Positions 1,180 to 18,641 of a DNA stretch of 32,000 nucleotides are shown here, piece by piece; within the stretch, counting starts at the first letter, position 1, and the number at the start of each line of letters is the position of its first letter. Source of the stretch: Planctopirus limnophila DSM 3776 (GTDB lineage: Bacteria; Planctomycetota; Planctomycetia; Planctomycetales; Planctomycetaceae); NCBI RefSeq assembly GCF_000092105.1, contig NC_014148.1:5130001-5162000 (forward strand). The letters run 5' to 3'. Made by a program: the position numbers and the translations under genes. Below the pieces are notes generated by a model, which was given only the letters and a program-made list of their open reading frames with translations, did no database searches and was not told the DNA's origin.

Positions 1180-3030
1180 ATGCCATACGACGAGTTTCTG
1201 ACATCACTCATTCAGCAGGCGATGATGGAACTCCAGTCCCTTGTCCATCGGCGATTCCTGCACAGACAGACTCTCTGGGGGCTTGTCACGCCGCTGGTTT
1301 GTCTGGGTCTGTCGAACACCAGTCTGGCTCAGTATGAAATGGGTCCTCCTGCCAAAGGTGCTGGTCCCCATCACGCAGCTCAATACGGAACTGGCCCGTC
1401 GAGGGGTAACCCTTCTGCTCGACCTCCAGCGGCGGGATATTCTTATCAGGCGTGGCCTTATCGACAGTCTGCCCCTGCGATGCCTCCGCAGGGAAATCCC
1501 ACAGCACCTCAACGGGGTCTGTATCAGATCCAACCCCCTCCGGTGGATAGATCATCAAACCAGCCACCCTTCAATCAGCACTCCTCAGGAGCGAATTCAC
1601 GTCAACCAGGTGGCTATCAAATGGGTGGCTACCCACAGAACTCCTATGGGCCGGGCAACACTCCACCGGGGGCCTACGTTCATCCGCCTGCTGATCGAAG
1701 AAACACGCCGGGCTCGGCTGGATTACTGGGGCCTGGCCAATCTTCCAATCGTGATCTGCCCAGTCAACCGGCTGCAGCCGGAGCGACGTTGACACCCAAG
1801 TCGATGCGGGAACTTGATCCCAGGACTCATTCCCGACCGGCTGGATCACTGTCACCTTTTGGCAAGCCTTCGTCTGAGCCGCAAGAACCAGCGAATCCTG
1901 AGTTAGCCTTTCCCCAGGCAGCGCTGCAAGTGCAGCCCGTCATCAGTCAACTGGGGAGTCAGGGAACTTTACTCGTGCAGGTGCGGAATACAGGCGTGGC
2001 TGCAGCCACAGGCCTGACACTGGAATTGGAATCAACATCGGCCTTACCCCTTGGCCATCAGGAAGGGACCGATAATCATCTGGCAGCATATCGGCTGACT
2101 TCTCAAAACAGTCGCAGTTTTCATGTCCCTGTGAATCAATTGGCATTTGGGGAATCGAGAGAGATCGCCATTCCAATGACGGCGAAAACTCTAGGAGATC
2201 ATGTTGTTCGTTGCCGGGTGATGGCTGGTCAACAGGCACTTGATGAAGTCTCCAGTACCGTGCGGATTATTCCCCGTCATCTCGAATTTGAGCTGGTGGC
2301 CAGCTATCATCGCCAGATCAATTCTCCATTGGGAAGTACCATTCGCGTCAAGAATGTGACTTCGCAGCCCATCTCGAAAGTGGCCGTCCGACTCGCTTTT
2401 GACGATGCCCTCGAAGCCACTCGTCTCGGGGCGGCCACAGTCGTCGAACCTGGCCTGATCGAATGGCAGATTGAAGCTCTCCAACCGGGTGAAGTGGCCT
2501 GGTTGCCTATGGAATTCACAGGCCGTCGTCCATCCCAGGAAAGCTGCTTGCGGGCAACTCTCAGTCGCAACGAAATCCCGCTGGATCAACTTGATCATCC
2601 TGTCTCGCTCGCGGATGACCGATTGCCTGTCACTCTCGATATTCTGGATCGTCAGGAACCTTCATCGGTCGAAAGCCAGCGTTCGGTGATCGTTGTGGTT
2701 CGCAATCACGGGTTTGATCCCTGTCAGCCCGTCGTCGGGATGCAACTTCCGGCAGGCTGGAAGCTCGCCAGTGTCACCGATCCTAAAGCTGGCAGGAACT
2801 GGCAGGTGCGATCAAAAGCCGGTGAATTGCTGCTCTTCCCTTCCGCCACAGTCGATGCGGGAGAAGCTGCTGTGATTGGATTAGAACTTATCCCACAATC
2901 GGCAGGAAATGGCACGCTGATCGGCCGGCTCTACTCCAATGCTCGTGCAGTGCTTAATCAACCTGCAGGATCGGTCCTGCCCGATCTGGAAGTCGAAGAA
3001 CAACTCGCAATTCACGCAGGCTCTCAGTGA
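1180..3030 (+). CDS. secreted repeat protein: signal peptide, ~200-aa Pro/Gln/Gly/Tyr-rich low-complexity region, three DUF11/CARDB-like repeats
   Basis: 616-aa ORF with hydrophobic h-region LWGLVTPLVCLGLSNTSLAQ. Three recurring blocks are typical of DUF11/CARDB beta-sandwich repeats: LLVQVRNTGVAAATGLTLELE, IRVKNVTSQPISKVAVRLAF and VIVVVRNHGFDPCQPVVGMQLPAGWKL. The start could instead be the in-frame ATG pair at 1222/1225. Confidence 0.6.
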   Translation: MPYDEFLTSLIQQAMMELQSLVHRRFLHRQTLWGLVTPLVCLGLSNTSLAQYEMGPPAKGAGPHHAAQYGTGPSRGNPSARPPAAGYSYQAWPYRQSAPAMPPQGNPTAPQRGLYQIQPPPVDRSSNQPPFNQHSSGANSRQPGGYQMGGYPQNSYGPGNTPPGAYVHPPADRRNTPGSAGLLGPGQSSNRDLPSQPAAAGATLTPKSMRELDPRTHSRPAGSLSPFGKPSSEPQEPANPELAFPQAALQVQPVISQLGSQGTLLVQVRNTGVAAATGLTLELESTSALPLGHQEGTDNHLAAYRLTSQNSRSFHVPVNQLAFGESREIAIPMTAKTLGDHVVRCRVMAGQQALDEVSSTVRIIPRHLEFELVASYHRQINSPLGSTIRVKNVTSQPISKVAVRLAFDDALEATRLGAATVVEPGLIEWQIEALQPGEVAWLPMEFTGRRPSQESCLRATLSRNEIPLDQLDHPVSLADDRLPVTLDILDRQEPSSVESQRSVIVVVRNHGFDPCQPVVGMQLPAGWKLASVTDPKAGRNWQVRSKAGELLLFPSATVDAGEAAVIGLELIPQSAGNGTLIGRLYSNARAVLNQPAGSVLPDLEVEEQLAIHAGSQ

Positions 3031-3061
3031 GAAGAACTGGCTCTTCGAAAGGCTCTGCGGT

Positions 3062-4465
3062 TCAAGGATTATCGGAAGAACTCTCGTCGGTACCGCTGCC
3101 ACTTTTTTTACCAGGCGATGACCCCCAGCGGGGTTTCTCGAGAGTGGATTCCCACTTGCGGTAGAGTGCTTCGAGCTGTTGAAGTTCGTCGGGGTGTGTC
3201 GCAGCCAGGTTTCGCTGCTCGTCAGGATCACTTGAGAGATCAAATAACTCAACTTGATCACCCTGGTCATCGTTGCCCGAGACGGCTTTCAAGTTTCCCT
3301 GTCGAATCGCCCATCGTTTTCCAGACTTCCAATACAGTGGTCGATCGACCAGTCGTTGGGTTTTGCCCGTCATTCTGGGAATCAGGCTGATGCCATCCAG
3401 CTTCTCAGGATCGAACGGGATCTTCTTCAGTTCAGCATCACCAAGACCAGCCACATCGAGGATGGTGGGAAAGAGATCGAGAGCAATCACAGGCTCATCG
3501 ATCACTTGACCGGAAGGAATCTTCGCAGGGTATTGAACGAGAAAAGGAATTCTTGTGCCTCCTTCCCAGGTTGAGCCTTTTTTCCCGTGTAGCGAACCAT
3601 TGTCGTGCCCGCCTGCTCCGCCATTATCGTTGATAAAGATCACCAGAGTATCTTTCGACAGGCCGCACTCCTTCAGGGCATCCAGAACTTTTCCGACAGC
3701 GCGATCGAGAGCGATGGTCATCGCATAAATCTTGTTGCCATCAGCCGCCTGCAAATCGACTGCCGTGGCATCGTTGGGGCTATGAGTCGCATTGAATGCC
3801 AGGTACATCATCCACGGTTGAGACTGCCACTGTTTGATATAGGCAATGGCCTCATCGGCCAGATGATCTGTCATGTAGCCGAATTGTTCCTCAGGGATCG
3901 CAGTCCGATCGCGCAGCATCTGATTCAAACGAGTTGGTTTCTTGAGAGGGAAATAGCTTCGCGAGCCCTGCAGAAATCCGTAGTAATCAGTAAAGCCCCG
4001 TTCCATGGGATGAAACTGTGGGGCATAGCCCAGGTGCCATTTCCCGAGTGCAATCGTTCGATAGCCATCTTCCTTGAGAAGTTGAGGGAGCAAAGTTTCT
4101 GATCGTGGGAGGCCGTTTGTCTCGCTATATGCTGGTGGGATATTGAACTCATGCCCAAATCGCTGTTGATACCGTCCTGCCAATAACCCCGCTCGCGATG
4201 GACTGCAGACACATCCCGAGACATATCCCTGTCGAAAATGGACACCGTTCTTGCCAATCGAATCAATGTGCGGGGTCTTGTAACGGGGATGACCTTGAAT
4301 CGAAAACTCGGCATGTCCGCAGTCATCAGAGAGTATCAATAAAATGTTGGGGCGACGTTCGCTGGTTGTTTCTGTTGTGGCCCTCTGAGCCAAAGCCAGT
4401 TGACTGGTGAATTGAAACGCCAGAATCAGCACCAACCACAGTCTCATAATGGAAGATCTTCTCAT
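3062..4465 (-). CDS. formylglycine-dependent sulfatase (arylsulfatase family), secreted
   Basis: 467-aa ORF with signal peptide MRLWLVLILAFQFTSQLALAQ. It has the LLILSDDCGH metal-site block, CSPSRAGLLAGR (C-x-P-x-R FGly motif), and the GKWHLGY and NDNGG blocks typical of type I sulfatases. Confidence 0.9.
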   Translation of the reverse strand: MRRSSIMRLWLVLILAFQFTSQLALAQRATTETTSERRPNILLILSDDCGHAEFSIQGHPRYKTPHIDSIGKNGVHFRQGYVSGCVCSPSRAGLLAGRYQQRFGHEFNIPPAYSETNGLPRSETLLPQLLKEDGYRTIALGKWHLGYAPQFHPMERGFTDYYGFLQGSRSYFPLKKPTRLNQMLRDRTAIPEEQFGYMTDHLADEAIAYIKQWQSQPWMMYLAFNATHSPNDATAVDLQAADGNKIYAMTIALDRAVGKVLDALKECGLSKDTLVIFINDNGGAGGHDNGSLHGKKGSTWEGGTRIPFLVQYPAKIPSGQVIDEPVIALDLFPTILDVAGLGDAELKKIPFDPEKLDGISLIPRMTGKTQRLVDRPLYWKSGKRWAIRQGNLKAVSGNDDQGDQVELFDLSSDPDEQRNLAATHPDELQQLEALYRKWESTLEKPRWGSSPGKKSGSGTDESSSDNP

Positions 4466-4646
4466 CAGTTCTCTGCAGTCTTTTTAAGCGGCCCTGGTTT
4501 GTTCCATGAAACATTACGGTTGAGAATCAACGCCTGATCACAAAAAAACTACAGCCAATGTGGTTGTGTATCAATGGGATAGACAAAACACACAGCGATT
4601 TGCGGTGTTGACCGATCCGAACCAAAGCAGGTCTCTTGTCAGGCAA

Positions 4647-6410
4647 TTAAACCGCATGCCGCTGGCGGTAGTACTTCAGGCCGGGGGCGAAGAAGCTCCA
4701 GGCGACGACGATGCCGTAAATCGTTAAGTCAAGATCCCAGTCTGTCCAGGCTTTCATACCCGCCATCACAAAGGCGGTGGCGTAAAGCACCAGTGCCTGC
4801 ACATAGAACTTGCCCGAGAGCACCCCGGCTTTAATCAGAAAGACCGCACCTGCCAAAAGTGCCAGCACCGGCGAAAGGGTCAGCACTGGGAGGTTCATCA
4901 TCCATTCGATGAAGAACAAGAGCGTACTGCAGATCGTGCTCGCCGCCCAGACATGCGCAATCTGCCGCTCGACAAACGTGATCGGCCCGGAGCGTCGGCG
5001 CAATTCCCAGAAGATGAAGGCCCAGATTCCCACACCCACAGACCACAAAGCGACATAAGGCAATCGCGAAACCACGCCTTGCCAGTGCATCAAGTTCGTG
5101 ATCAGGCACAATTGCAACACCACAAAGCTGTGCCACATCCAGAGCAGACCCCAGTTCTCCAGCACCTGGGCATGATGCGTTTCGCGAAACGCGCGGGTAA
5201 TGACCTGCGTAAAATGCGAAGACCTCGCTGCAATCGGTTCATTATGCAGGTAGGCCTCGAGATCATCTGCCATCGCATCGGGAGTGGCATACCGCAGATC
5301 GGCCGGCTTCTGCAGGCATTTGAGGGCAATCATTTCCAGATCGGAATCCGCCTTCGGGTTCAGCATCCGCGGCGGTACCGGGTCTTGTTCCAGCACCAGC
5401 AGGATCGTGTCCACAGGCGAAGAAGCCTGAAATGGCGGCCTGCCAGTAAGCAGCGCATAGAGGACAGCCCCCAGACTGTAAACATCGGTCAATGTACTCA
5501 CTTCACCACGCTGGCCAGCAGCCTGCTCCGGAGCCATATACCCGGGAGTTCCTAAAATGGCACCACTTTGCGTCAATGTGGCCGACGCTTTGGGATCATC
5601 ACTTTCCATGGAGAATCGTTTGGCCAGCCCGAAATCACTCACATAAGGTGTCCCATCGACTTCAATGAGAATATTCGAAGGTTTCAAATCGCGGTGCAGA
5701 ACACCTCGTCGATGAGCATCACCAATCGCGCGGCAGATAGGCAGCATGATCTCGGCGGCTTCCCGATTCGGGATCGGGCCATCGATTATCCGTCTGGCCA
5801 GCGTTGTGCCTTCAATCAGCTTCATACTGAAATAAGGGCGGTTCTCGAACGTACCCACTTCATAAACCGGGACGATATGCGGATGATCGAGACGGGCTGC
5901 CGATTCGGCCTCTGAGCGAAAGCGGGCAATATCGATGCTCGAGGCTAATCGCCCCTGCAGAATCATCTTCAGTGCCACAATCCGGTCGAGCGACTTCTGC
6001 CTCGCCCGGTAGACCACACCCATGCCACCCCGGCCTAATTCGTCGAGAAGCACATAATCATCGACTTCACGCGAACGGAGAGGGGCATCACCTCGCTCGA
6101 CATCAGGAGTATCCTTCCAGAGATGTCGCCATGTGGAGTCAGTCCTGACTTTCTCGACGGTACGAGAATTCCTTTCGCTGCTTTCAACGCCAGATTCACC
6201 AGCAAAGCTTGCATGAGAACTGGCCGCCAGGCCCTCCGTCATCAGGATTGTTCCCCAGAGCATTCTCAATTCGCCGGCTAAGCGCGGATACTGGCGACAA
6301 ACAACCTCCAGATCGACCGATCCCCCTTCCTGCAACCGCCGGACGAGTTGATCAGCCACTTCCGCCAGTTGAGCTTCTTCATCGGATGAAAGCGAAGGAA
6401 TTGTGGACAT
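4647..6410 (-). CDS. Ser/Thr protein kinase (Hanks type) with C-terminal polytopic membrane domain
   Basis: Kinase motifs: GRGGMGVVYRA (Gly loop), VALKMI (Lys), HRDLKPSNIL (catalytic loop), DFGLAK and GTPGYMAPE. The last ~200 aa contain about six hydrophobic helices (LLWMWHSFVVLQLCLITNL, VALWSVGVGIWAFIFW, etc.). ATG start at 6410. Confidence 0.9.
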   Translation of the reverse strand: MSTIPSLSSDEEAQLAEVADQLVRRLQEGGSVDLEVVCRQYPRLAGELRMLWGTILMTEGLAASSHASFAGESGVESSERNSRTVEKVRTDSTWRHLWKDTPDVERGDAPLRSREVDDYVLLDELGRGGMGVVYRARQKSLDRIVALKMILQGRLASSIDIARFRSEAESAARLDHPHIVPVYEVGTFENRPYFSMKLIEGTTLARRIIDGPIPNREAAEIMLPICRAIGDAHRRGVLHRDLKPSNILIEVDGTPYVSDFGLAKRFSMESDDPKASATLTQSGAILGTPGYMAPEQAAGQRGEVSTLTDVYSLGAVLYALLTGRPPFQASSPVDTILLVLEQDPVPPRMLNPKADSDLEMIALKCLQKPADLRYATPDAMADDLEAYLHNEPIAARSSHFTQVITRAFRETHHAQVLENWGLLWMWHSFVVLQLCLITNLMHWQGVVSRLPYVALWSVGVGIWAFIFWELRRRSGPITFVERQIAHVWAASTICSTLLFFIEWMMNLPVLTLSPVLALLAGAVFLIKAGVLSGKFYVQALVLYATAFVMAGMKAWTDWDLDLTIYGIVVAWSFFAPGLKYYRQRHAV

Positions 6411-6461
6411 GCCAATACTCGCTACGAAATTTCACAACTACTGCCACTTCAGCTCAGTTTG

Positions 6462-6959
6462 TCATGCGAACTGTTGTTTAGCATTCGCATAACGCATTAT
6501 GAATCCAAATAAGGTTCCACTGATGGCAGGCAAAAAAAGTGGCAAGAGCATCCACCACGCTAGTCCTTGTACTCCCATCGTATGGCGACTGAGTTCCCAC
6601 AACATGTAAATTCTTGCCATCCCTCCCGTCAGAATGGTGATCAGCAAGCCCAACATCAACGTTCGCCACGAAAGAGACCACGCGGCCAGGATCGTGCTGA
6701 CTAATCCTCCGGCAGCCGATGGAATCAAGCCCAAAATCGTGACGTCAACAATCCAGCTATACCAGACGGATGGATCCCAGTTCACTCGCACCAAAGTAAG
6801 GACATAATTCCGTGTAAAGTACCACGCCTGATATGTCACGATCACACCCAAAACAATCGCTGCGACAGCCAGTACCAACGTTCTCAGCCACCACCAGAAG
6901 TTCATCGTCCTGATCCCCGGTAGAATGACTGGTCGTGTTGCCTCTGCTGATGACGGCAC
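6462..6959 (-). CDS. small integral membrane protein (4-5 TM), function unknown
   Basis: The ORF sits 3 nt after the methyltransferase stop. The longest start is GTG 6959. The in-frame ATG at 6905 (MNFWWWLRTLVLAVAAIVLGVIV...) is an equally good start. The protein is strongly hydrophobic throughout and has no recognisable motif. Confidence 0.55.
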   Translation of the reverse strand: MPSSAEATRPVILPGIRTMNFWWWLRTLVLAVAAIVLGVIVTYQAWYFTRNYVLTLVRVNWDPSVWYSWIVDVTILGLIPSAAGGLVSTILAAWSLSWRTLMLGLLITILTGGMARIYMLWELSRHTMGVQGLAWWMLLPLFLPAISGTLFGFIMRYANAKQQFA

Positions 6960-8068: not shown

Positions 8069-11000
8069 TTAATCTTTCGCGGGTGGTTCGTCTTTCTTCT
8101 GCTGTTGTCGCTTGATCTCCAGCAGTTTTTCATAAGTCGATTTGGCAGCACCTGGTGCCGGCTTTTCGGTTTGCGTTTTTTCTGAAGTGGGGGGAGTCTT
8201 TGCAGATGGTGATGGCGGTAGAGTCATCGGTGGCTTGCGAATGACGGGTGGCCGTTGTGGTGGTGTTTTCCGCGATGACGATGCCTCAGCGGCAGGTTTG
8301 CCGGTCTCAGTGGTTGTCTGCTGCGAACCGGACTTTTTCTGATCGAGCAAAGTTGACATTGTCGAGGTGACTTCCCGGCGGGGTCTGAACCAGCCTGCCA
8401 CGACAGACCAATCCCACTGAATGCGCCTCAAACCGACATCGAGAGGGACAAGACAGGCCAGCGCCACAAGAAACCAGTCAAAAATCGGACGTGAACTCTG
8501 GCGGGGTTCGCGCTCTTTCGGGAAGAGTTCGTCACTTTCTGGATCACCCGTCAAGACGCGCCCACCTGTCCTTTGGGCAATCTCTTCGAGTAACTGCCGG
8601 TTCGATCCAAACCGCAGATATTCCGGCGAGTAGGCCAGCACGAATCCGCCAAACGTCGATTCCTTCCGCTCAGCCGGTTGACCGTCCACGCCGATTTTTG
8701 TTCCCGCACCTGCCACCGAAACGTAGTAGCGGCCTTGCCCCCACAGCGGAACCAGCGCCTGATAGCGACGCGGCCCCACCTGCCGGAAAGTGAGGCTTTC
8801 CGAACGATCGTTCGGGCCACCGACGCGTCCGGAGATTTCCAGAAAGCCCTCTTCCGGGGCAAAATCTTCGACAATAACGACTCCCTGCGCTCCTTCGACA
8901 TACGTGCTCAAGCGGAGTTGTGTGTCTTTGCGGATGCGGGCGATATCCGTGGTGAGCTGATTGAGGAAATCCTCATACTTGCCCCATGCCACCCAGTCCT
9001 TTCCCCAGTTCTTGCCAAGTTCCGAAGTGAAAGCCGCCGTCTTCCCTAACCCGTGCTGGCGAATCGCCAGAAGTGGATCCAGCTGCGACTCTTCCTCTTT
9101 CGAACCGGGCGGAACTTTGAGCACAACCTGAGCATCGGGCTTGGCGGTCGTGAGTACATACCCTTTCAACTCCGGTAATGAACTGATGCCTTTCAAAACT
9201 GGCGAACTCGAAGCAACTTCCGGGAAGAAATCGCGGTTTTGAAGCATCGACCGGCGGAGTGTCTTCGATTCTTTGATGAAGATCGCTGGTAGCTGATTCG
9301 GATTGGTCGGCTTGTAATAACGCCCGCCAGTAATCTGTGCGATCGATGTCATCGTCGGCGTATCCACATCTCCGTGTGGAAAGACAGCGACCGTGCTGAT
9401 GGTCACCTTCGCGTCAATAAATCGCTTCAAGAGATCGGGCGAGGCTGGTGAAGGATCTCCATCGGAAATGATGATCATATGTTTCGACGAAGCATCGCTC
9501 GCTTCGAGTCCATCGATACCCATCTGCATCGTCTGCTGAAAACTGGGCATATCCCCAATCTCAGCTGAGTTAATCAGTAACGACAGCTCTTCGTACTTTC
9601 CTGCGGGTGTGAGTTCAAAAATCCATTTCTCACCATCGTTGTAGTCATAGGCCAGAACGCCCACTTCATCCTGTTCGCCCAGAACCTTAATGGCCTGCTT
9701 GGTGATTCGCTTGCCCCAGGTATTGCCCTCCGGGAATTCACAGGTATGCAGAATGATGGCCAGTGCTCCCTTAGGAAGCACCTTCTTCTGTGTGATATCC
9801 ATCGTGACGGGAAGAATCTCTTCGACAGCCGTCCGGTGATATCCCCCGGGGCCAAAGCTCCCCGGCCCACCGACCATCAGAAAGCCAGTTCCCAGATCGA
9901 AAACACTGTCTTTGAGTGCCTGCAATTGAACGCCATCGAACTCATTGGCAGGGACATTCACAAACAAAATCGAGTCGTAAGGAATCAGTGAGGAAGGGTC
10001 TCGCGGAAAGTCGACTCCGGCCATCACATCAACTTGTTTTTTGGCCTTATTGAGAGACTCGACCAGTGGTTCCCAATCGAGTGGATTCCCCGTGGGATCG
10101 TAAACAACGAGGATTTTCCCCTCCCCTTCGACGACAATCCCACCCATGGCCATATTGTTTTGCGCCAGGCTGTCAGCTTCTGCCTCGGGTTCAATGGTGG
10201 CGGTATATTCATAGTATCCGGGCCGGCGTAAGGCGAGCGGGACTGCCAGGCGTGTCTTCCCTTCGCGATACGAAATCGTTTCTTCCACAATCGGCTGGCC
10301 GTTCTCGCGAACAACCAGCTTGCCCTGACCAGCCGACAAGGCCGAGACGATCACCGCCGCTTCATAGGTCTCGCCAATCTTGACGTTGCTCGGAAGATCA
10401 ATTCGCTCGACCCAGACCTCATGTTCGTAGTCATATTCAATAGGCACCACATCGACAGAGATCTTACGGGATTTCAGTTCATCGAGAATACGGTCGAGAC
10501 TCCCTTCAGTCTGAGATCCATCGGAAAACAGCACAATCTTCCCCGCCTGATCATCCGGCAGCATGGCGCTGGAAAGGGAAAGTGCCTGCTCGATATTGGT
10601 GGCATCACCACGAATATCGGTATTGAGTGCCTCGGCCAGAAACGTGGTACGAGGTGGTAATTCCACAGCCGCGTTACGCCCGAAGACTGACAGCCCGGCT
10701 TCATCGCGAGCCGGTTTTTTCGTGACAGTTTCTGCAATATAGCGCAGCACCTGATCCTTGGCTGAGCGGCCGATCGAATCGGACGTATCCAGCACATACA
10801 TCAGTGATTGTCGGTCGTTCTCACGAACAGCGCGGGGTTCAGCCAGCAGAAATGCGAGGATTCCGACCATCGCCAGACGAACCCACAGTGCCATCCAGGA
10901 TCGCAGCCACGGTAAGCCCGGCATCCCCGCCATGTGCAGCCACCAGACCCACACACTCAAGACCACCAGCGAGAGTAACCATGGCCGGGTCAACAGTAAC

Positions 11001-11140
11001 ACCCGACTGGCCTCCAGCCAGAAGGCAATGCCCACGGTCAAGACCATCGAGATGAGTAATGGCGCAACAGTCCAGGGCGTCACTGGCTTGCGAGCCGGTG
11101 GAAAAAGTCGCATCAGCAGGTACTGTGCTTGTTGCCACAT
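8069..11140 (-). CDS. large VWA-domain membrane protein (BatA/BatB-like family) with Pro-rich C-terminal tail
   Basis: N-terminal ~100 aa carry 3-4 TM helices. VWA 1 has a MIDAS DxSxS motif (LMYVLDTSDSIG). A central block (KILVVYDP...FLMVGGPGSFGPGGY) resembles the GATase1/ThuA-like domain seen in this family, from memory. A second VWA-like block has a degenerate MIDAS (...HMIIISDGDPS). A late TM (IFDWFLVALACLVPLDVGL) is followed by a Pro/Thr/Lys-rich tail. The ORF-track start 11143 is GTG; the adjacent ATG is at 11140. Confidence 0.85.
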   Translation of the reverse strand: MWQQAQYLLMRLFPPARKPVTPWTVAPLLISMVLTVGIAFWLEASRVLLLTRPWLLSLVVLSVWVWWLHMAGMPGLPWLRSWMALWVRLAMVGILAFLLAEPRAVRENDRQSLMYVLDTSDSIGRSAKDQVLRYIAETVTKKPARDEAGLSVFGRNAAVELPPRTTFLAEALNTDIRGDATNIEQALSLSSAMLPDDQAGKIVLFSDGSQTEGSLDRILDELKSRKISVDVVPIEYDYEHEVWVERIDLPSNVKIGETYEAAVIVSALSAGQGKLVVRENGQPIVEETISYREGKTRLAVPLALRRPGYYEYTATIEPEAEADSLAQNNMAMGGIVVEGEGKILVVYDPTGNPLDWEPLVESLNKAKKQVDVMAGVDFPRDPSSLIPYDSILFVNVPANEFDGVQLQALKDSVFDLGTGFLMVGGPGSFGPGGYHRTAVEEILPVTMDITQKKVLPKGALAIILHTCEFPEGNTWGKRITKQAIKVLGEQDEVGVLAYDYNDGEKWIFELTPAGKYEELSLLINSAEIGDMPSFQQTMQMGIDGLEASDASSKHMIIISDGDPSPASPDLLKRFIDAKVTISTVAVFPHGDVDTPTMTSIAQITGGRYYKPTNPNQLPAIFIKESKTLRRSMLQNRDFFPEVASSSPVLKGISSLPELKGYVLTTAKPDAQVVLKVPPGSKEEESQLDPLLAIRQHGLGKTAAFTSELGKNWGKDWVAWGKYEDFLNQLTTDIARIRKDTQLRLSTYVEGAQGVVIVEDFAPEEGFLEISGRVGGPNDRSESLTFRQVGPRRYQALVPLWGQGRYYVSVAGAGTKIGVDGQPAERKESTFGGFVLAYSPEYLRFGSNRQLLEEIAQRTGGRVLTGDPESDELFPKEREPRQSSRPIFDWFLVALACLVPLDVGLRRIQWDWSVVAGWFRPRREVTSTMSTLLDQKKSGSQQTTTETGKPAAEASSSRKTPPQRPPVIRKPPMTLPPSPSAKTPPTSEKTQTEKPAPGAAKSTYEKLLEIKRQQQKKDEPPAKD

Positions 11141-11231
11141 CACTTAGAAAAATCTTGACCATTCAAGGAAAAACAAATCTGCCGAATCGTGCCATGAAAA
11201 GGGCTTGGTGAATACCCTGAATCTCTGGCTT

Positions 11232-13151
11232 TCAACGAGAAATTTTCCAGCAGACAATCCGGCGATTCCCCGTATCGGCCACATACAGCCTTCCCTCAGG
11301 ATCGTAACACACTCCCCAGGGAGTCCGCAGTGGTTCGGCAGCAAAACCTCGTCCCATAAGTTCACCATTCGCGGAAAGCCTCGTCACCTGCCCGCTCGCA
11401 TACTCGACAATCCAGAAATCAATCGCTTTTCCTGCCTCCGTTGAACCTGATGCAATGTCATAAGGATAAGCCAGTTCGGCCTGGTTGAAATCATTTTGCA
11501 AGAGCTTCCCCGTCTGTGCATCAAAAACCTGCACCCGGCTGTTGAAAGCATCGACAATGTAGAGTCGGCCCTCCGACCAGACGACACCGCTGGGCCTTTG
11601 AAATTCTCCCGGCCCCAGACCAAATCGCCCCATTTCCAGCACCATCTGACCATCGGTCGTCAGCTTCTGGCAGCGATCATTCGAGCCATACTCGCAAACA
11701 TAGAGAAAGCCTTCCGGGTCTTGTGTAATCGCGACCGGATAAATGAACTCTGCTGGCCCTTTTCCTTCCTGCCCAAAGATATGGCTGATCGTCCCATCGG
11801 GATGAAAAATCACCACGCGATGATAATGTGTATCGGCGACGGCAATCCGCCCGTCATTCAGCACACAGATCCCTTCGGCTTTCCCGATGGAATACTCAGG
11901 CATATGCCACTTCCGCACGAGCTGATGCTCGCGGTCATAAATGAGCACACGGCCAGCGGTGTCGAGCACCAGCAATTCACCAGCGGGAGAAACACACAAT
12001 CCGCGCGGTGCCGGGACAAGTGGCCCATCAGCCGGGAGCATCCAGCGCGTTTCCTCTGCGATGGCCACCCGGGGTTCATCAGCTTTCCAGCAACCGGATA
12101 AGTTGAGCAGCAGCGCAATGAAGAGCAGCAGTGGCAGCCACCGCAATCTCACACGGCTCCCAACCGGTGGAAAACTTCGCTGCCCGGCAACCCACAGAGT
12201 TCGTGATGTTTTTGGGCCAACTTCCATTTCGCGGGCATCAGGTTGGGCTGCCTGCTCTCGAAGAGCACGCAGTTCCAGTACAGAGAGCGGCCCGACGGTC
12301 TCCAGACTCTCCATCACGATCGAAGACTCGCTCGCAGCCAGTACCTCCACCTGTTCGGGACGCACATTCGCATGCGGCAACTCTTCACCCCACCAGAGTG
12401 CTTGCTCGTTCGTCAAAAACCAATTGGTCGCCCCGAGAATCCACGCCACTTCCTGTGTCTCGGGTGATCGATAAAGATCGACAGGCCGACCACTGGCCAC
12501 CAGTTTTCCATCTTCGAGGATCAATAGATGATTGGCACATCCCAGCACGAGTTCCGGCTGGTGAGTGCTGTAGATCACGTTCGTCTGTTGCTCCTTCCAG
12601 TAACGAGTCAAACTCTTCCAGAGTGTTTGCGTCAAACTTGCCTGCAGATGAACGCAAGGCTCATCGAGGACAAGCACCGGTGCATTCGAAATGACGGCTC
12701 GCGCCAGGCTCAGCCGGGATTGTTCGCCTTGCGAGAGCTGGCTGGGCAACCGATGTGCGGGGTGCAGTTCAAACAATGAAATCCAGTCTTCCACCTGTGC
12801 CTGGCTTGAACCAACTGGGGCTGTGGCCTGCAAATGCTCGGCAATCGTCAGATCGGGCCAGAGGCCGAAATCGGCAGGCATCCAGGCGATGGGCAAAGTC
12901 AAGGGTTCATGGATTGCTTGATTGTAAGCCGTATGGTTCCACTGGAGCTTCCCGGAACTCGGCTCTTCGAAGCCAGCCAGCAGATTCAATAGCGTCGTCT
13001 TCCCAGCTCCCGATGGCCCCATGACGGCTGTCAGACCACAGGGTATGGTCGTGGTGATCGTCTCCAGCCGCTCACGACGGGCACTGGGCCGAACAGTTCT
13101 CGCCAGGGCCGAAACGTGATCAAGCTGGCAAAGACCAGAAGGAGCTGACAA
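11232..13151 (-). CDS. ABC transporter ATP-binding protein fused in frame to a lipoprotein-type signal peptide and six-bladed NHL-repeat beta-propeller
   Basis: NBD motifs: Walker A GPSGAGKTT, signature LSQGEQ, Walker B VLVLDEP, H-loop IYSTHQ. After the NBD come RVRLRW-LPLLLFIALLL-NLSGC and six NHL-like blades (e.g. YPVAITQDPEGFLYVCEYGSNDRCQKL, RPSGVVWSEGRLYIVDAFNSRVQVFD, TPWGVCYDPEGRLYVADTGNRRIVCW). The only start codon upstream of Walker A is TTG 13151, four codons after an in-frame stop. Confidence 0.8.
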   Translation of the reverse strand: MSAPSGLCQLDHVSALARTVRPSARRERLETITTTIPCGLTAVMGPSGAGKTTLLNLLAGFEEPSSGKLQWNHTAYNQAIHEPLTLPIAWMPADFGLWPDLTIAEHLQATAPVGSSQAQVEDWISLFELHPAHRLPSQLSQGEQSRLSLARAVISNAPVLVLDEPCVHLQASLTQTLWKSLTRYWKEQQTNVIYSTHQPELVLGCANHLLILEDGKLVASGRPVDLYRSPETQEVAWILGATNWFLTNEQALWWGEELPHANVRPEQVEVLAASESSIVMESLETVGPLSVLELRALREQAAQPDAREMEVGPKTSRTLWVAGQRSFPPVGSRVRLRWLPLLLFIALLLNLSGCWKADEPRVAIAEETRWMLPADGPLVPAPRGLCVSPAGELLVLDTAGRVLIYDREHQLVRKWHMPEYSIGKAEGICVLNDGRIAVADTHYHRVVIFHPDGTISHIFGQEGKGPAEFIYPVAITQDPEGFLYVCEYGSNDRCQKLTTDGQMVLEMGRFGLGPGEFQRPSGVVWSEGRLYIVDAFNSRVQVFDAQTGKLLQNDFNQAELAYPYDIASGSTEAGKAIDFWIVEYASGQVTRLSANGELMGRGFAAEPLRTPWGVCYDPEGRLYVADTGNRRIVCWKISR

Positions 13152-13231: not shown

Positions 13232-14839
13232 CTAAGAATTTCGAGTCTGCCGGGCAATCACCATCGACGGCCCGGGGATTGTGTGCCGGGAATCGTATGA
13301 CCTGGGACGTATGCCCGAGGATCGCATGCAGATAGAGATCAGCATCGCCAGCACTGAGAGCAGGGCGAACGGCACGATCGCCAGCAGCAGGGCTTCTGCT
13401 GTCAATGCCGCCGAATGACCGTAATGCATAAAGTTGTAGAGCCTGACTGTGCCAGTAGCCATTCCGGTGGGTGCCAGTAACGCAGTCAGCAGCACATCCG
13501 CACAAGCGAACGTCGCGATCAGCACTCCGAGCCATAACCTGGGCTTGAGGGCCACTTGAAACCGCCAATTCGCCAGTTTTTGAAAAGTTGAACCTGTGTG
13601 GAATCCTTGGGAAATCGTTTGATCGAATCCCATTTCTGTATGGGCCACTCGACGCAATCTCCACTGGCCGTGCAGCCTGAGCACTTGATCTGCGAGCGAG
13701 AGAGCAGCGACCGGCCGCCTGGATTGCAGCATCGACTCCACCAGCCATGCCAGAGGAAAGATCTTGATCACCACACCAGCGAGCAGCCAGAGAGGCAGGC
13801 TCATGCGCCAGCCTGTGGCATCTGCAAGAGTGACACTCAGACCACGAAGCGTCAGCCCGATGGTCAATGCTCCCAATAGGCCCAGCGTCAACAGCCCATA
13901 CCCTAACCATCTGGCGAATTCAAACTGTATGCGTCCTGCAGAATGTGTCAGACTCCTGGTCGTGTATTGAGCCAATCCCAGGGCGATCATGGTGGCTGTG
14001 GTCGCAAGCAGCAGGCTGGTCACCACTTCATTCAACAAAATCACGCGCTGTCGGCCACCTTGCCACAGGTACTGTCCCATCCCCCAGGCGTCTTGCATGA
14101 TCAGCCAGACGAGGGGCGAGAACATCACACCCAGCAGTACCAGCCACAGGCCTCCTCCGACAACACTCCATCTTTCCAGCTTCGATGGTCGATTTTCAGC
14201 CGAATTTTGATGTGGCTGAAGATTGCCTGTGACGAAAAAGCTGTGCTGAGTTTGACCAGCGAGTGCCAGCAGTAACGCGATCACGGCTGGAAAAATCACC
14301 AGTTTTAAGGTCTGGTTCAGCGGTAAACCTCCCGCATGATCGACAAAGAGATCATCGGTCCATGTTCTCACCCCCAGGAGTGCACTCAGTTCAAACTCCT
14401 GAAAAGTGAACAGCAGCACGAGAGCGAGAGCCCATTTCCAGCGCGACCAAGAGCCGCGAAACCGAGGCCATAGAGGTAAGGGGCGATGCTGCCGGGCCAA
14501 TTCCCGGCCCAACCACTCTGCAGACGATGAGCTTTCTTGCCGAGGTCCGCACAAAATCAGCAGCAGGGCCAGAGGTGTCATCCGCATCAGCAGTAGCCCC
14601 TGATAGACCAGTTCGCCTTCGATAATGGAAAGCCCGGTGCGATTCCAGGCGTATGTCAGGAGCAGGGGGGGGACCATCCACACGATAACAGCGAGGACTG
14701 CGATCCAGGGTCTGACGAAAACAGAAAATCTGGTCTCAGTTCGCCAGAACGAGGCCATCGACCACGCCAATGGCCATGCGAGACTCGTGACGAGAATCGC
14801 TCGCAGTAATGTGAGGATGACCGACTCTGTCATTCTCAT
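13232..14839 (-). CDS. ABC transporter permease, duplicated (about 12 TM) FbpB/ThiP-type
   Basis: Long hydrophobic protein with two half-domains, lying between the SBP and ATPase genes. I chose the start at ATG 14839-14837, which overlaps the SBP stop as ATGA. The ORF-track start 14953 would overlap the SBP gene by 118 nt and adds a non-hydrophobic Arg-rich leader. Confidence 0.8.
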   Translation of the reverse strand: MRMTESVILTLLRAILVTSLAWPLAWSMASFWRTETRFSVFVRPWIAVLAVIVWMVPPLLLTYAWNRTGLSIIEGELVYQGLLLMRMTPLALLLILCGPRQESSSSAEWLGRELARQHRPLPLWPRFRGSWSRWKWALALVLLFTFQEFELSALLGVRTWTDDLFVDHAGGLPLNQTLKLVIFPAVIALLLALAGQTQHSFFVTGNLQPHQNSAENRPSKLERWSVVGGGLWLVLLGVMFSPLVWLIMQDAWGMGQYLWQGGRQRVILLNEVVTSLLLATTATMIALGLAQYTTRSLTHSAGRIQFEFARWLGYGLLTLGLLGALTIGLTLRGLSVTLADATGWRMSLPLWLLAGVVIKIFPLAWLVESMLQSRRPVAALSLADQVLRLHGQWRLRRVAHTEMGFDQTISQGFHTGSTFQKLANWRFQVALKPRLWLGVLIATFACADVLLTALLAPTGMATGTVRLYNFMHYGHSAALTAEALLLAIVPFALLSVLAMLISICMRSSGIRPRSYDSRHTIPGPSMVIARQTRNS

Positions 14840-15978
14840 CGAACGACATCCTCTTGCCTTAACCAGTTGACGGCCTGTTCGCGGGCCTTGGTCAACTCTC
14901 CATTTCCGACCATGGTGGCGAGTGGCCACGCTTGCTGGCGAAGAGTCATCCATGGTTTCACTTCTTCGGGAAGCTGCTCTTCAGCAACTGTTCCCAGTGG
15001 TATCTGCCGGGCTCCCGATTGAGCCAGCGCCAGTTCGACTTCCGGTGAAAGGAGATACTCGATGAGTTGGATGGCTTCCGGCCTCGGCTGATTTCCCGCG
15101 AGTCGGTTCTTGGCAATCAATGCCGCGGTATTCGGGATGAGTATTGGTCGATTTCCATAAAGAAGCGGAAACATGGAAACAGCCGCCCCTTCGTCAATCG
15201 CCGAGAACGCATCATCGGTATCGGTCCAACCCAATGCCGCTGCATTTTTAGCGACGAGGTTTTTGACTGCACCATTTCCGGCCACCACTCGCAAATGCCG
15301 CTGACTCACGGCCTCCCGCAGGGACTTCTGAACCGTCTCCAAGCCCTCTTCCTGAATCATCAGGCTCACTTGAGTCAACGTTGTCCCGTACAGTGGCCGG
15401 GCAATGGCAACACGCGAAAGATCCTCCTGCTTCTCGAAATACTCGGCAAACAACTCGGCCGGTGCTCGGTCAGGCTGTTCTTTTATCAACTGTGCGGCGA
15501 ATTCATCCGTCGCAATCCAGACACGCGCCCGCGCGGCAAAACCCGTCCAGCGGCCCAGAGCATCACGATCTCCAGGCGATCGAGCTTTCCAGCCAGGCCC
15601 CTGATATGCGATCAGCCGGTCTTTCTCGGCGAGTGCGACCATGCCTAAAAGCTCGTTGTTCCAGAAGAGGTCGCATTCTGTCGTGGCACCTTCACTGATC
15701 AATTGATCGACGAGACCCAGGGATTTCGTGGCCTCTGTGTCATATCGCACAACCACCGGGATTCCCGTCTTTTCCGTGAACCGGCGGAGAATCGGCTCGG
15801 CATAGACGGCATCATGCGCACAGAACACAACGAGTGATGTCGCAGCTGGTTGCTGGATCCAGCTCCAGAAGATGAAGAGCCCCAGAGCACCGACCATCGC
15901 CAGAGGCCACCACAGTCGAGCGGAATTTTCACGATGATTTGATCCGCTCAACCTGAGTGCCTCGTGTTCAAGTTCCAA
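14836..15978 (-). CDS. ABC transporter substrate-binding protein, family 1 (Fe3+/thiamine-type, FbpA/AfuA/ThiB-like)
   Basis: N-terminal hydrophobic anchor/signal LWWPLAMVGALGLFIFWSW. VVFCAHDAVYAEPILRRFTEKTGIPVVVRYD...CDLFWNNE...IAYQGPGW matches the pattern of Fe3+-type SBPs. The longest start is TTG 15978. The next ATG (15897) would cut the anchor, so the exact start is uncertain. The substrate is not determinable from sequence. Confidence 0.75.
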   Translation of the reverse strand: MELEHEALRLSGSNHRENSARLWWPLAMVGALGLFIFWSWIQQPAATSLVVFCAHDAVYAEPILRRFTEKTGIPVVVRYDTEATKSLGLVDQLISEGATTECDLFWNNELLGMVALAEKDRLIAYQGPGWKARSPGDRDALGRWTGFAARARVWIATDEFAAQLIKEQPDRAPAELFAEYFEKQEDLSRVAIARPLYGTTLTQVSLMIQEEGLETVQKSLREAVSQRHLRVVAGNGAVKNLVAKNAAALGWTDTDDAFSAIDEGAAVSMFPLLYGNRPILIPNTAALIAKNRLAGNQPRPEAIQLIEYLLSPEVELALAQSGARQIPLGTVAEEQLPEEVKPWMTLRQQAWPLATMVGNGELTKAREQAVNWLRQEDVVR

Positions 15979-16099: not shown

Positions 16100-17926
16100 T
16101 CAATTTCCCTGTTGTACCACACTCTGAGACTGCTGCTCTGGAAGATGATCCAATGCCAGTTCATAACACGCCGCCATTTCGGCATTGCGCAGATAAAGTT
16201 TGGAACCAATGACCACGGGATGATTCCAGGTCTTGCCTTCGATGGCGGGGAACCGGGCCAGCTCAACAGGCTTCGCAGGATCAGCCTTCAATAACACCAC
16301 TTCGCCTGTTTCACTGGTGACCAGGAGTTGACCCGCATCGGGCAGCAGCAAAACCTGGCCATTCCCGTAGCGACCCCGCTTCCACGCACGTTTGCCGGTT
16401 TCTAACGAAACACAGGAAAAGATGTTGCCATCAAAGCCATAGAGGTAGTTCTGATATTCAACGAAGTCATTGAAATCCGGCTTCAAATCGCGAGAAGTCC
16501 AGTCTTCAGTCACTTCCCACTGATCACCCTTTTGGCGTGCTGTCACCTTGCGAGTTCCCAACCCTAAGCTCGTGGCTATGAACGCCGAGTTTCCTACCAC
16601 CAGTGGCTGCAAGGCCCGATAATTGTCGCCAGCCCAGCGATGTTCCCAGATTGTGTGACCATCTGTGACATCCAGAAATTGCAGACCGGCATTCGTACTC
16701 ATGAGCAACCCGCTCACACCATCAAATGACGCCAGTTGAGCTGAACTGTAGCTGTGATCTCCCGAAGGGACTGACCACGCCAGTTCGCCATCAGCCGCCC
16801 GATATGCCAGCACACCTTTATTTTCCGCGCCACCGGCATGCACAATCACCAATCCCTGCACCACTAATGGTGATGAGGCAAAACCCCACATGGGTGGTTT
16901 TCTCCCGGCATCCACCTGGAGATCGCGCGTCCAGCGCTTGGCTCCCGTGACTGGGTCCATTGCCAGGAGCACTCCATTGGCTCCGAGGGCAAAGAGACCT
17001 TCATCGGCAATGGTGGGCGTTGCCCGCGGACCGGCTCCCGCCACAGCTTCCCAGAAGCGGCTGGGATATGTTGTGGCCCAGATCGTCTCACCGGTGGTCG
17101 TATTCAAGCAGACCACAGCTTCGTCTTCGCCGCGCTGTTCCTGAGTGAAGAGCCGATTTCCTGCGACAGAAAATGATGACCAACCGGGGCCAATCGGTTT
17201 CTTCCAGAGCGATTTCGGAGGTGTCTCCTCCCAGTTCGACTTCAGGACAATCCCCGGTTGACGTCCATCACGAGCCGCCCCTCGAAACGCCGGCCAAGCG
17301 GCATCTGCCAGCAGAATCTTCTCCGATGGAGCAGGGCTGGGAGTCTCAGCAGCCTGACTGGCGACTGTTTGCAGATACCGCTCTTCAGCAGTCGGGATCC
17401 ACCGCCAGGAGAGTTCGGGTTGAAAGGTTCCGTCCACCCCAGCCGATTGCAACGAATCCCAGTATCCTAAGGTGAGAGCCACTGCTCCCAGTGCCACTGG
17501 CAATCGCCATTTCGGCTGAGCTGCCAGAAGACATAAACTCACAGCAAAAGCGCCCACGCCATAAGGCACGACATACATGATGGCATTCATGTTGGCCAAA
17601 CTCGGATGCAGAAGCGTGATGGAAATTCCGATCAAGGCGATGGTGAGCAGGGCACCCAGCAGCCGTTCGCGAATCGTGGAGCGACTGAATGTGACCCACC
17701 ACAGCAGAATCAACACACCTGCGACGGCAGGGCCCAGAAAACTCGCAAAAATTACAGGTAAAGAGGGTGCCTCCACCACGGCAGGTATCATGCGGAGTAG
17801 AAACATCAGCACCACGAGGAATGCCGCCGGCCACCAGCGTAATGTGCTCGGCTGAACCGCAGGAGTCGATGCCCCTTCCGGATGGCTTGCCGGTTCCGAA
17901 GGACTGGTTGATGAAGTCGTCGTCAT
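16100..17926 (-). CDS. membrane-anchored PQQ-like (BamB-like) beta-propeller repeat protein
   Basis: The N-terminal ~170 aa contain about 5 TM helices. They are followed by AWPAFRGAARDG...WSSFSVAGNRLFTQEQRGEDEAVVCLNTTTGETIW...GPRATPTIADEGLFALGANGVLLAMDPVTGAKRW... and further repeated blades, which are typical of PQQ_2-type propellers. ATG at 17926. Confidence 0.85.
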   Translation of the reverse strand: MTTTSSTSPSEPASHPEGASTPAVQPSTLRWWPAAFLVVLMFLLRMIPAVVEAPSLPVIFASFLGPAVAGVLILLWWVTFSRSTIRERLLGALLTIALIGISITLLHPSLANMNAIMYVVPYGVGAFAVSLCLLAAQPKWRLPVALGAVALTLGYWDSLQSAGVDGTFQPELSWRWIPTAEERYLQTVASQAAETPSPAPSEKILLADAAWPAFRGAARDGRQPGIVLKSNWEETPPKSLWKKPIGPGWSSFSVAGNRLFTQEQRGEDEAVVCLNTTTGETIWATTYPSRFWEAVAGAGPRATPTIADEGLFALGANGVLLAMDPVTGAKRWTRDLQVDAGRKPPMWGFASSPLVVQGLVIVHAGGAENKGVLAYRAADGELAWSVPSGDHSYSSAQLASFDGVSGLLMSTNAGLQFLDVTDGHTIWEHRWAGDNYRALQPLVVGNSAFIATSLGLGTRKVTARQKGDQWEVTEDWTSRDLKPDFNDFVEYQNYLYGFDGNIFSCVSLETGKRAWKRGRYGNGQVLLLPDAGQLLVTSETGEVVLLKADPAKPVELARFPAIEGKTWNHPVVIGSKLYLRNAEMAACYELALDHLPEQQSQSVVQQGN

Positions 17927-18006
17927 ATTCGTAGTCCTAAAAGTTACATTTCTTGTGACGAAGAATGTCGTTTCAAAGTCGTTTGTGTCAGCTGTCCTGC
18001 TCGCGA

Positions 18007-18570
18007 TCAGCGTGTGGTTTTGCCTTTTCGTGAACCCGATACGGCTTTGGTCTTTTCAACCAGCCGAATGGTTTGGGAGTGTTTTTTGGCAGCCGCTGGT
18101 TGGCGTTCTTCCTCCGAGGGGCAGCAGATTCCCAGTTTGATCATGCGATTGACAACCATCTGCGAGAATTCTGCCACGCTGGTGCGTCCCAGATTCCGGC
18201 GGAAGACCGCTTCGGCCTCAGCAATCACCTCTCGCAACACAGCTTCAATATGTTCTCCGACCAAGCATTCATCCCGCTCGACTTCGCGTGGAAAACTGAT
18301 CAGCGATGTGCCAGATTCCACCACGGCATCAAAGACTTCTCCCAGATGAATCGCACTGGCGGGCCGGGCCAAACGCGAGCCACCGCTCGCCCCGCGACGA
18401 GTTTCAATCAACCCCGCTTTCTGCAACTGGGTCAGCAACCGGCGGACAACCACCGAATGGGTATTGATACTTCGCCCCAACTCATCCGAAGAGACCCACT
18501 CCACACCTTGCTCACCCTGCCAGGCCAGATACCCCAGCACATGAGCCGCAACAGTAAACCGCGTATCCAT
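18007..18570 (-). CDS. Rrf2-family transcriptional regulator, cluster-less YwnA-like subgroup
   Basis: MDTRFTVAAHVLGYLA...SSDELGRSINTHSVVVRRLLTQLQKAGLIETRRGASGGSRLARP is the Rrf2 winged HTH. There is only one mid-protein Cys (DECLVGEH) plus a C-terminal CC pair, so the IscR/NsrR three-Cys Fe-S ligand spacing is absent. ORF-track start 18573 is TTG; the adjacent ATG is at 18570. Confidence 0.85.
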   Translation of the reverse strand: MDTRFTVAAHVLGYLAWQGEQGVEWVSSDELGRSINTHSVVVRRLLTQLQKAGLIETRRGASGGSRLARPASAIHLGEVFDAVVESGTSLISFPREVERDECLVGEHIEAVLREVIAEAEAVFRRNLGRTSVAEFSQMVVNRMIKLGICCPSEEERQPAAAKKHSQTIRLVEKTKAVSGSRKGKTTR

Positions 18571-18613
18571 CAAATCAGCACCGCTTCAGCACAAATGTAA
18601 TTCCCTCAGATAC

Positions 18614-18641
18614 AATATAGAGCTTCTCTCGTCTGTGTCAA
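18614..18641 (-). promoter_or_regulatory. near-consensus sigma70-type promoter for the Rrf2 gene (TTGACA-N16-TATATT)
   Basis: The minus strand reads CTTGACACAGACGAGAGAAGCTCTATATTG. The -35 TTGACA is at 18641-18636 and the -10 TATATT at 18619-18614, with a 16-nt spacer. This matches 11 of 12 consensus positions. It lies ~45 nt upstream of ATG 18570. Confidence 0.45.

Follow-up and report, generated by a model that had tools for sequence, protein, structure and literature searches.

An importer-type ABC ATPase and an NHL propeller joined in one conserved frame through a predicted internal lipoprotein signal peptide in Planctopirus limnophila

Textbooks describe the ATPases of ATP-binding cassette (ABC) importers as soluble subunits of the cytoplasm and place lipoprotein signal peptides at the N-terminus. 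In the FbpABC/SfuABC/HitABC type I importers of ferric ions, an operon encodes a solute-binding protein (SBP), one long double permease and an ATPase, and the ATPases FbpC, MalK, CysA, PotA and GlcV carry a regulatory beta domain after the nucleotide-binding domain (NBD). To our knowledge, no described FbpC or MalK has a signal peptide and an exported domain past its regulatory domain. Here we analyze a gene of Planctopirus limnophila DSM 3776 in which an ATPase of this kind, within an operon of the same layout, continues in frame into a lipoprotein signal peptide and an NHL beta-propeller. The gene occupies 11232..13151 (minus strand) of a 32,000-nt stretch of NC_014148.1, hereafter the window; all positions are within this window, and all features lie on its minus strand unless marked otherwise. 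An earlier note on this DNA had offered three readings: (i) a genuine fusion of NBD, transmembrane (TM) segment and periplasmic propeller, (ii) nested products, with the propeller also initiated separately, and (iii) a sequencing error or recent loss of a stop codon. Judged from the sequences of its homologues, the fusion is a genuine, long-conserved gene and not an assembly error, and selection appears to keep just the residues recognized by Lgt and LspA at the junction. A fourth possibility, absent from the earlier three, is in our judgement the most likely: post-translational separation of the two parts at the internal lipobox by Lgt and LspA.

The frame runs from a TTG start without interruption for 639 codons plus a stop. 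It was confirmed both in the list of open reading frames (ORFs) and in the sequence, and homologues aligned over its full length. Residues 1–245 (12417..13151) make up an ABC NBD by Pfam, NCBIfam and PDB sequence matches. Pfam placed ABC_tran at residues 36–166 (E = 1.3e-27), the PDB matches were GlcV, SugC, MalK, PotA and FbpC, and the nearest NCBIfam families were the importer ATPases PhnT/PhnT2, PotA, ModC, CysA and FbpC, with scores that fell far short of every equivalog cut-off. The motifs listed in the earlier note were all confirmed in the sequence: Walker A GPSGAGKTT at 12993-13019, the signature LSQGEQ at 12720-12737, Walker B VLVLDEP with the catalytic Glu at 12657-12677, and the H-loop with His197 at 12561-12563. 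The protein therefore carries the Walker A, signature, Walker B and H-loop elements of an ABC ATPase; its signature reads LSQGE instead of LSGGQ, with the second Gly kept. Eight residues (G45, S47, G48, G50, K51, D163, E164 and H197) were invariant in 36 homologues. The Q-loop glutamine is absent, Ala93 being aligned to the Gln of GlcV. In the Q-loop region (residues 88–93, 12871-12888) Trp90 and Pro92 are invariant and the family motif is W-x-P-x; W-x-P-Q occurs in only some homologues, and the Q-loop Gln is not conserved in the family.

Between the NBD and the signal peptide the earlier note had placed a linker of ~30 residues. We found instead that these residues belong to a folded, beta-sheet regulatory (TOBE/OB-like) domain of the ATPase, residues 246–338 (12138..12416), as indicated by predicted strands, Foldseek and TOBE_2 matches in homologues. 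An AlphaFold2 (AF2) model built from the 36 homologues, with a mean predicted local distance difference test (pLDDT) score of 88.9, has regulatory-domain strands at 268–272, 278–286, 289–296, 316–322 and 333–338, the last of which is RVRLRW. The best Foldseek match against the PDB was 9j4r_B, the ATPase of T. thermophilus FbpBC (TMt 0.75), followed by CysA, GlcV, MalK and PotA (1z47, 1oxs, 3puv, 8zx1), with alignments of ~360–380 columns, and Pfam recognized TOBE_2 in several homologues. The sole low-confidence loop of the domain, residues 300–312, aligned to gaps in the 36-sequence alignment except in P0001 and partly in P0002, which are the two closest relatives. On this model, the first 338 residues make up an FbpC/MalK-type ATPase complete with its beta-sheet regulatory domain.

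The regulatory domain passes directly into the signal peptide. A hydrophobic core, LPLLLFIALLLN (residues 339–350, 12102..12137), delimited by hydropathy, AF2 and homologue composition, begins one residue past the last strand and is followed by the lipobox L351-S352-G353-C354 (12090..12101), so that the junction reads RVRLRW-LPLLLFIALLLN-LSGC. Lgt acylation is predicted at Cys354 (codon 12090-12092) and an LspA cut between G353 and C354. The charged n-region, hydrophobic core and lipobox of the earlier note were thus all present; the positive n-region consists of R333, R335 and R337, which all lie within the preceding strand. A crude hydropathy scan found a single hydrophobic segment in the whole protein, at 334–352. 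In the AF2 model its helix spans just 11 residues (340–350), and residues 352–357, which hold the lipobox, are disordered (pLDDT <50). The sequence LSGC, after an uncharged core preceded by three arginines, agrees with the lipobox consensus [LVI][ASTVI][GAS]C (PMC12462473). The Cys is residue 354, not within ~15–40 residues of the N-terminus as in an N-terminal signal peptide; only the split orthologues described below place it there. A terminator-like hairpin of 7 bp (12125-12144, GCGGTGGC...TGCTGC then TCTTCATT) lies inside the region coding for the signal peptide and is probably a by-product of its Leu and Ala codons.

We examined the junction in the 120 homologues listed by a protein search over 5.8 billion proteins, to which the following figures refer. 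A strict PROSITE-style regular expression under-called sites (N at −4, P at −2), and a position-anchored count was used instead. The Cys was present in 120/120 and position −1 was G, A or S in every one (G 115, A 3, S 2), with mostly L, V, F, A or I at −3. Positions −12 to −3 were 74–98% hydrophobic, free of D/E, and had K/R in at most 1% at any position. Entropy was 2.0–3.3 bits across these positions, fell to 0.29 bits at −1 and 0.00 at the Cys, and was 2–3.5 bits in the flanks; the ten positions past the Cys had 3–3.5 bits and were rich in G, S, P, D and E. The uncharged run preceding the Cys was 12–13 residues long in 75 homologues and 16–17 in 32. In the 36-sequence alignment, Cys354 was invariant and Gly353 occurred in at least 90%. 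Cys354 was also the sole Cys among the invariant or ≥90%-conserved columns; its retention for a disulfide is unlikely, given that these columns hold no second Cys. The constraint on the junction has the pattern of an Lgt/LspA site rather than that of a plain TM anchor, and the uncharged core has the length of a signal peptide rather than that of a TM anchor.

These measurements bear on the possibility that the fusion is never cut. In that case a 70-kDa bitopic chain would persist, its signal-anchor tying the propeller to the motor and its Cys possibly lipidated, which would fix the stoichiometry and hold the propeller at the inner membrane. Such a chain would solve the problem of inner-membrane retention, since no sorting signal common to the 120 homologues is seen directly after the Cys. 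Its N-in/C-out topology suits R333, R335 and R337, and counting V334, L336 and W338 the segment reaches ~17–19 residues. However, a plain anchor leaves the invariant Cys and the G/A/S at −1 without a reason, and a core of ~12 residues, with its 11-residue helix, is short for a stable TM segment. By analogy with FbpC and MalK, whose regulatory domains are described on the underside of the ATPase dimer, as seen from below (PMC2896483, which describes the FbpC domain), the regulatory domain is expected to be membrane-distal, and a permanent anchor one residue past its last strand looks strained. Of the first option in the earlier note, then, the genuineness of the fusion and its N-in/C-out topology stood, whereas a permanent TM tether is not favoured because the core has only ~12 uncharged residues and the sole sequence-specific constraint is on G-C. 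We consider a lasting tether, the main rival to separation at the lipobox, rather unlikely.

Past the Cys, a tether of ~10 residues leads into the propeller; the mature NHL part comprises residues 354–639 (286 aa, 11235..12092), identified by Pfam, PDB and AF2. The six NHL-like blades of the earlier note were borne out. Pfam reported NHL repeats (E = 4.9e-27) plus DUF5128, the AF2 model has 24 strands arranged as six four-stranded blades at 364–637 (pLDDT mostly >90), and Foldseek gave TMt values of 0.8–0.86 to the NHL domains of Thin and TRIM2. NHL propellers matched in the PDB were those of Thin, TRIM71, TRIM2, Brat and PknD. The length from the Cys to the end was 280–310 aa in the 120 NBD-fused homologues and ~283–300 aa in most loci of all architectures. 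When the mature propeller was run against all representatives, giant multi-NHL proteins dominated the results; the close relatives matching in a single stretch were mostly 600–650 aa long (fused), with a few of 331–544 aa. We looked for a function among the conserved residues of the propeller, but the D/E-x-x-N-x-R motif is a generic NHL blade motif from which catalysis is not inferable. Motifs specific to the family are W-x-M-P-E and ADTHYHR. The propeller is probably a periplasmic accessory of the Fbp-like importer and/or of the VWA protein encoded downstream.

The fusion itself is widespread, being kept in hundreds of Planctomycetes-type bacteria. Among the matches listed, all 120 carry ABC_tran fused to NHL; they are 591–754 aa long and 39–97% identical, and they cover 79–100% of the query (at least 95% in all but three). 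Cultured isolates are among them, including Polystyrenella longa (6.1-Mb contig) and Thalassoglobus sp. JC818. Database entries for this fused family carry names such as 'ATP-binding cassette domain-containing protein', 'PhnT' and 'iron(III) transport system ATP-binding protein'. We also scanned one genome per GTDB species, which gave at least 435 encoding loci, and fetched 80 of these. The 80 were classed from raw DNA, with L037 counted as fused and the upstream ABC match in L060 taken as unrelated. The earlier note had asked whether orthologous loci have a stop between the two parts, and the answer was divided: ATPase and NHL share one frame with no stop in ~33/80 loci and are two genes in ~20/80. 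In a further 17 the NHL part is fused to the C-terminus of the permease, and the remaining loci were standalone or cut by contig ends.

The third option of the earlier note, an artefact or very recent lesion merging two ordinary genes, has in its favor that split orthologues exist and that a one-base change at their ATGA overlap would be enough to fuse them. Nevertheless, the same junction is open in independent assemblies at 97% (P0001), 95% (L001, a pond metagenome-assembled genome [MAG] named Planctomyces sp.) and 66% (P0002) identity, and in more than 100 homologues at ~40%. These include complete isolate genomes, and the junction is under purifying selection. These comparisons refute the third option, and we regard an artefact as exceedingly improbable. 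Loss of a stop between adjacent genes survives as the evolutionary origin of the fusion, in keeping with the split orthologues and their ATGA overlaps; its supposed recency does not, the event being ancient.

The split loci indicate how the fusion could have come about. In these, the ATPase stops 3–8 residues past the same last strand (...VVRLRA, ...QRAALQVGT and ...SVSLEVL, each followed by the stop), and the NHL gene opens with an ordinary N-terminal lipoprotein signal peptide: MRSLAAALALALAAC, MTIRRTLCLVTALLICGC, MILPLGIALLCCLFLSGC and MRFTSLFIILLCCGC. The ATPase stop and the NHL start share bases in eight split loci, as ATGA or GTGA; such a stop/start overlap is the classic arrangement for translational coupling. 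A small indel at such an overlap would give the seamless junction of the window, with the basic residues of the last strand replacing the n-region. Fused and split loci interleave in a neighbor-joining tree of mature propellers, where L024 (fused) and L043 (split) are near neighbors, as are L013 and L028. In L033 (5095-7773) and L056 (2252-3925), the signal peptide follows the NBD directly and the regulatory beta domain is missing, which marks these as independent fusion junctions. These sequences point to an ancient origin of the fusion from two adjacent, translationally coupled genes.

The permease-NHL fusions extend the pattern. The 17 loci are more distant, with a propeller identity of 31–36%, and belong to Pirellulales, Phycisphaerae, Sedimentisphaerales, Tepidisphaerales and some Verrucomicrobia; they fall among L061–L080 and encode proteins of 840–1000 aa. 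In L066 (2119-4644), for example, an 841-aa protein has BPD_transp_1 at 364–532, then ...RLVRLRW-LALVLVTCAGFFAVSGC, and then NHL. No ATPase gene was found within 6 kb in any of the 17 loci. From the ATPase- and permease-fusion loci together, it follows that the partner is always whichever gene is immediately upstream, and that the lipobox is kept each time. The uncleaved chain discussed above gains something from these comparisons, since it is conserved over deep divergence and the permease fusions resemble the known fusions of transmembrane domain and SBP (TMD-SBD) in ABC importers. Against it, the frequent switching between fused and split states argues that the covalent link is dispensable. 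Separately, L080 has a 1359-codon frame (2707-6783) with N-terminal BatA_N, VWA_2 and DUF7408, a permease-like motif, the lipobox LWAAC and NHL; the frame could be a triple fusion or else come from faulty MAG assembly.

The second option of the earlier note was that of nested products. Translation would also start at the GTG at 12150-12152 and yield a 306-aa prolipoprotein, fMet-RLRWLPLLLFIALLLNLSGC..., with the full-length chain serving as the ATPase. The elements that it had named are all present: the in-frame GTG (codon 334), preceded by GGGAG (12157-12161) with a 4-nt spacer, together the candidate internal start at 12150..12161, and an in-frame ATG at 12225-12227, which is codon 309 inside the loop 300–312. 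The N-terminus produced from the GTG would be a textbook lipoprotein signal peptide, the NHL start of split relatives sits exactly here, and the conserved Val is encoded by GTG in several fused orthologues. It is encoded by other codons in many, however. All ATG, GTG and TTG codons among the 32 that precede the Cys were catalogued in the window and in 33 fused loci, and no start-codon position is conserved across these 34 sequences. In L008, L015, L029 and L056 there is no ATG, GTG or TTG between −28 and −12 from the Cys, so that there the propeller can be exported only within the full-length chain. The GGG of GGGAG is the codon of the invariant Gly331, and both it and the Val are explained by Gly331 and Val334 being structural residues of the last strand. 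A Shine-Dalgarno (SD)-like core precedes 8/20 putative gene starts in the window and 11% of its 619 internal in-frame start-like codons; against this background, GGGAG plus GTG was rejected as a notable signal. The hairpin at 12125-12144, just 3' of the GTG, would be unhelpful for initiation, and even with a second start the signal peptide of the full-length chain still needs to be dealt with. As a conserved mechanism nested products did not hold up, and we judge this explanation improbable, although nested initiation may occur in the Planctopirus genome itself.

We propose instead that the internal lipobox exports the propeller and is lipidated by Lgt and cut by LspA, giving two subunits. On the sequence comparisons above, we give this proposal an even chance of being correct. 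The ATPase part would fold and stay in the cytoplasm, while the internal signal peptide (n-region R333/R335/R337, h-region 339–350) would insert N-in/C-out and Sec would translocate the propeller. Lgt would then add diacylglycerol to Cys354, and signal peptidase II (LspA) would cut between G353 and C354. The precursor would in effect be a lipoprotein minus its initiator Met, joined to the ATPase without a linker. Its products would be those of the split genes, formed at the membrane in a 1:1 ratio. One would be an ATPase, soluble or peripheral, that ends in a short hydrophobic tail; the other would be an NHL lipoprotein anchored to the membrane on the periplasmic side. Four observations suggest such processing, namely selection specific to G-C, a core of signal-peptide length, free interchange of fused and split states, and a promiscuous partner. 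A built-in cut site would make fusions nearly neutral, which would account both for the promiscuity of partners (ATPase with or without the regulatory domain, permease) and for the alternation of fused and split states among close relatives.

Several points weigh against processing at the lipobox. A strict PROSITE-type lipobox pattern fails at −4 (Asn) in the P. limnophila protein, and ~10% of homologues have Pro at −2. Our literature search found no documented action of Lgt/LspA on a lipobox at least 350 residues from the N-terminus. Cleavage would also leave a hydrophobic tail of 12–16 aa on the ATPase. Lastly, if cleavage is neutral, the persistence of the fusion needs no function, and a functional tether that stays uncut would fit its long persistence just as well. 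The broader claim, that ATPase- and permease-fused lineages together form a natural polyprotein system in which Lgt/LspA split the chain at a lipobox 340 to ~770 residues in, behind an ATPase or a 12-TM permease, we place a little short of even.

The outcome matters in either case. If the internal lipobox is processed, the substrate range of Lgt/LspA is wider than assumed, and the family would be a clean natural bacterial example of a membrane polyprotein. Predictors and automatic annotation would then misdescribe hundreds of genes, and lipoprotein predictors limited to the N-terminus would miss a class. Without such processing, the family would be an ABC importer of a kind not seen before, its motor covalently linked across the membrane to the propeller. 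In both cases the fusions single out the NHL lipoprotein as a partner in a gene cluster that is widespread in the Planctomycetes-Verrucomicrobia-Chlamydiae (PVC) group. This cluster consists of an Fbp-like importer, NHL and a VWA/GATase1-like protein, and at one locus or more also of MoxR and DUF58.

The order SBP, permease, ATPase(-NHL), VWA protein is kept in most of the 80 loci. Upstream of the fused gene in the window lies an ABC permease of ~535 aa with ~11–12 TM segments (13232..14839), which probably starts at ATG 14839 and not at the first ATG of the ORF list, 14953; its start overlaps the SBP stop as ATGA (14836-14839). The permease gave no Pfam match at E<0.01. It is syntenic in most loci and shares a homologous C-terminal motif with the permease-NHL fusions. 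The SBP (14836..15978) is weakly FbpA/HitA/SfuA-like, an assignment drawn from sub-threshold Pfam, PDB matches and synteny: SBP_bac_11 scored E = 6e-4, below the cut-off, and the N-terminus has weak similarity to ferric-binding FbpA, HitA, SfuA and YfuA (E = 1e-7 to 2e-3 in the PDB). The counterparts in L066 clearly match BPD_transp_1 and SBP_bac_6/8/11/1. By sequence, the permease and SBP of Planctomycetaceae appear unusually divergent.

Downstream, 8069..11143 encodes a 1024-aa VWA/GATase1-like (BatA-like) membrane protein recognized by Pfam. The VWA gene, with a product of ~1000 aa across the loci, is the most constant neighbor of the NHL gene, immediately downstream in most of the 80 loci, distant ones included. 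L034 and L038 have NHL and VWA without ABC genes nearby, and the Chthoniobacter-type loci (L021, L024, L027, L043 and L049) have ABC and NHL with no VWA. L066 has MoxR (AAA_3) and DUF58 next after its VWA gene. The NHL lipoprotein looks like the hub of an uncharacterized PVC gene cluster.

Other parts of the window were also read. Upstream of the SBP, the region 16100-18641 contains a gene whose 608-aa product has TM segments at its N-terminus and a PQQ_2/BamB-like propeller, an Rrf2-family regulator (18007-18573) and a good sigma-70-like promoter with an 11/12 match (18612-18641); possibly the three constitute one operon under Rrf2 control. Only L001, the closest relative, has the PQQ gene in synteny. 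The window also has a MoxR-type AAA_3 ATPase at 22304-23242 (plus strand), which is not adjacent to the VWA gene, and a sulfatase and a Ser/Thr protein kinase (3062-4465 and 4647-6410), all typical planctomycete content.

Set beside known systems, each part of the protein has counterparts. The ATPase has the domain order of FbpC (PDB 9J4R, 3FVQ) and its relatives, and the locus has the operon layout of FbpABC; it differs in that the SBP and permease are too divergent for Pfam and that the Q-loop Gln is replaced (A93). The propeller shares six four-stranded blades and the D/E-x-x-N-x-R motif with PknD, TRIM71, TRIM2, Thin and Brat, a likeness at the level of repeat and fold only (20–24% identity by Foldseek). 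The signal peptide follows the prolipoproteins handled by Lgt, LspA and Lnt, with a positive n-region, a core of ~12 residues, a lipobox, a flexible tether and a folded periplasmic domain. In those, however, it is N-terminal, whereas here it begins 338 residues in, behind a folded cytoplasmic enzyme, and in the permease-fused lineages 480–770 residues in, behind a 12-TM permease. All three parts, the ATPase of FbpC/MalK type, the lipoprotein signal peptide and the propeller, are known, and their combination is undescribed in the literature searched, where we found no description of an NBD-NHL fusion, an internal lipobox or internal LspA cleavage.

Three described architectures come nearest to the whole. 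The type VII proteins MacB, FtsEX and LolCDE show superficially the same order of NBD, hydrophobic segment and large periplasmic domain. We rejected a MacB-like architecture, since the present protein has one hydrophobic segment against four TM segments and an importer-type NBD with a regulatory domain; moreover, its propeller runs to the C-terminus, where type VII proteins have their periplasmic domain between TM1 and TM2, and canonical importer permease and SBP genes lie upstream. The TMD-SBD fusions OpuA and GlnPQ covalently join to a core subunit a periplasmic module that in other systems is a separate protein with a lipid anchor, and L061–L080 have the same layout. In contrast to these, the module fused here is not an SBP, which has a gene of its own; in the window it is joined to the cytoplasmic ATPase instead of the TMD, and its lipobox is kept. 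The closest parallel to the proposed processing is Bradyrhizobium japonicum FbcH, reportedly a cytochrome b-c1 polyprotein that signal peptidase I cleaves at a signal peptide inside the chain. There, too, one ORF is said to combine two adjacent genes of a membrane complex, and an internal signal peptide both exports the second part and gives the cut site; the difference is that signal peptidase I reportedly acts in FbcH, whereas the lipoprotein pathway is proposed here.

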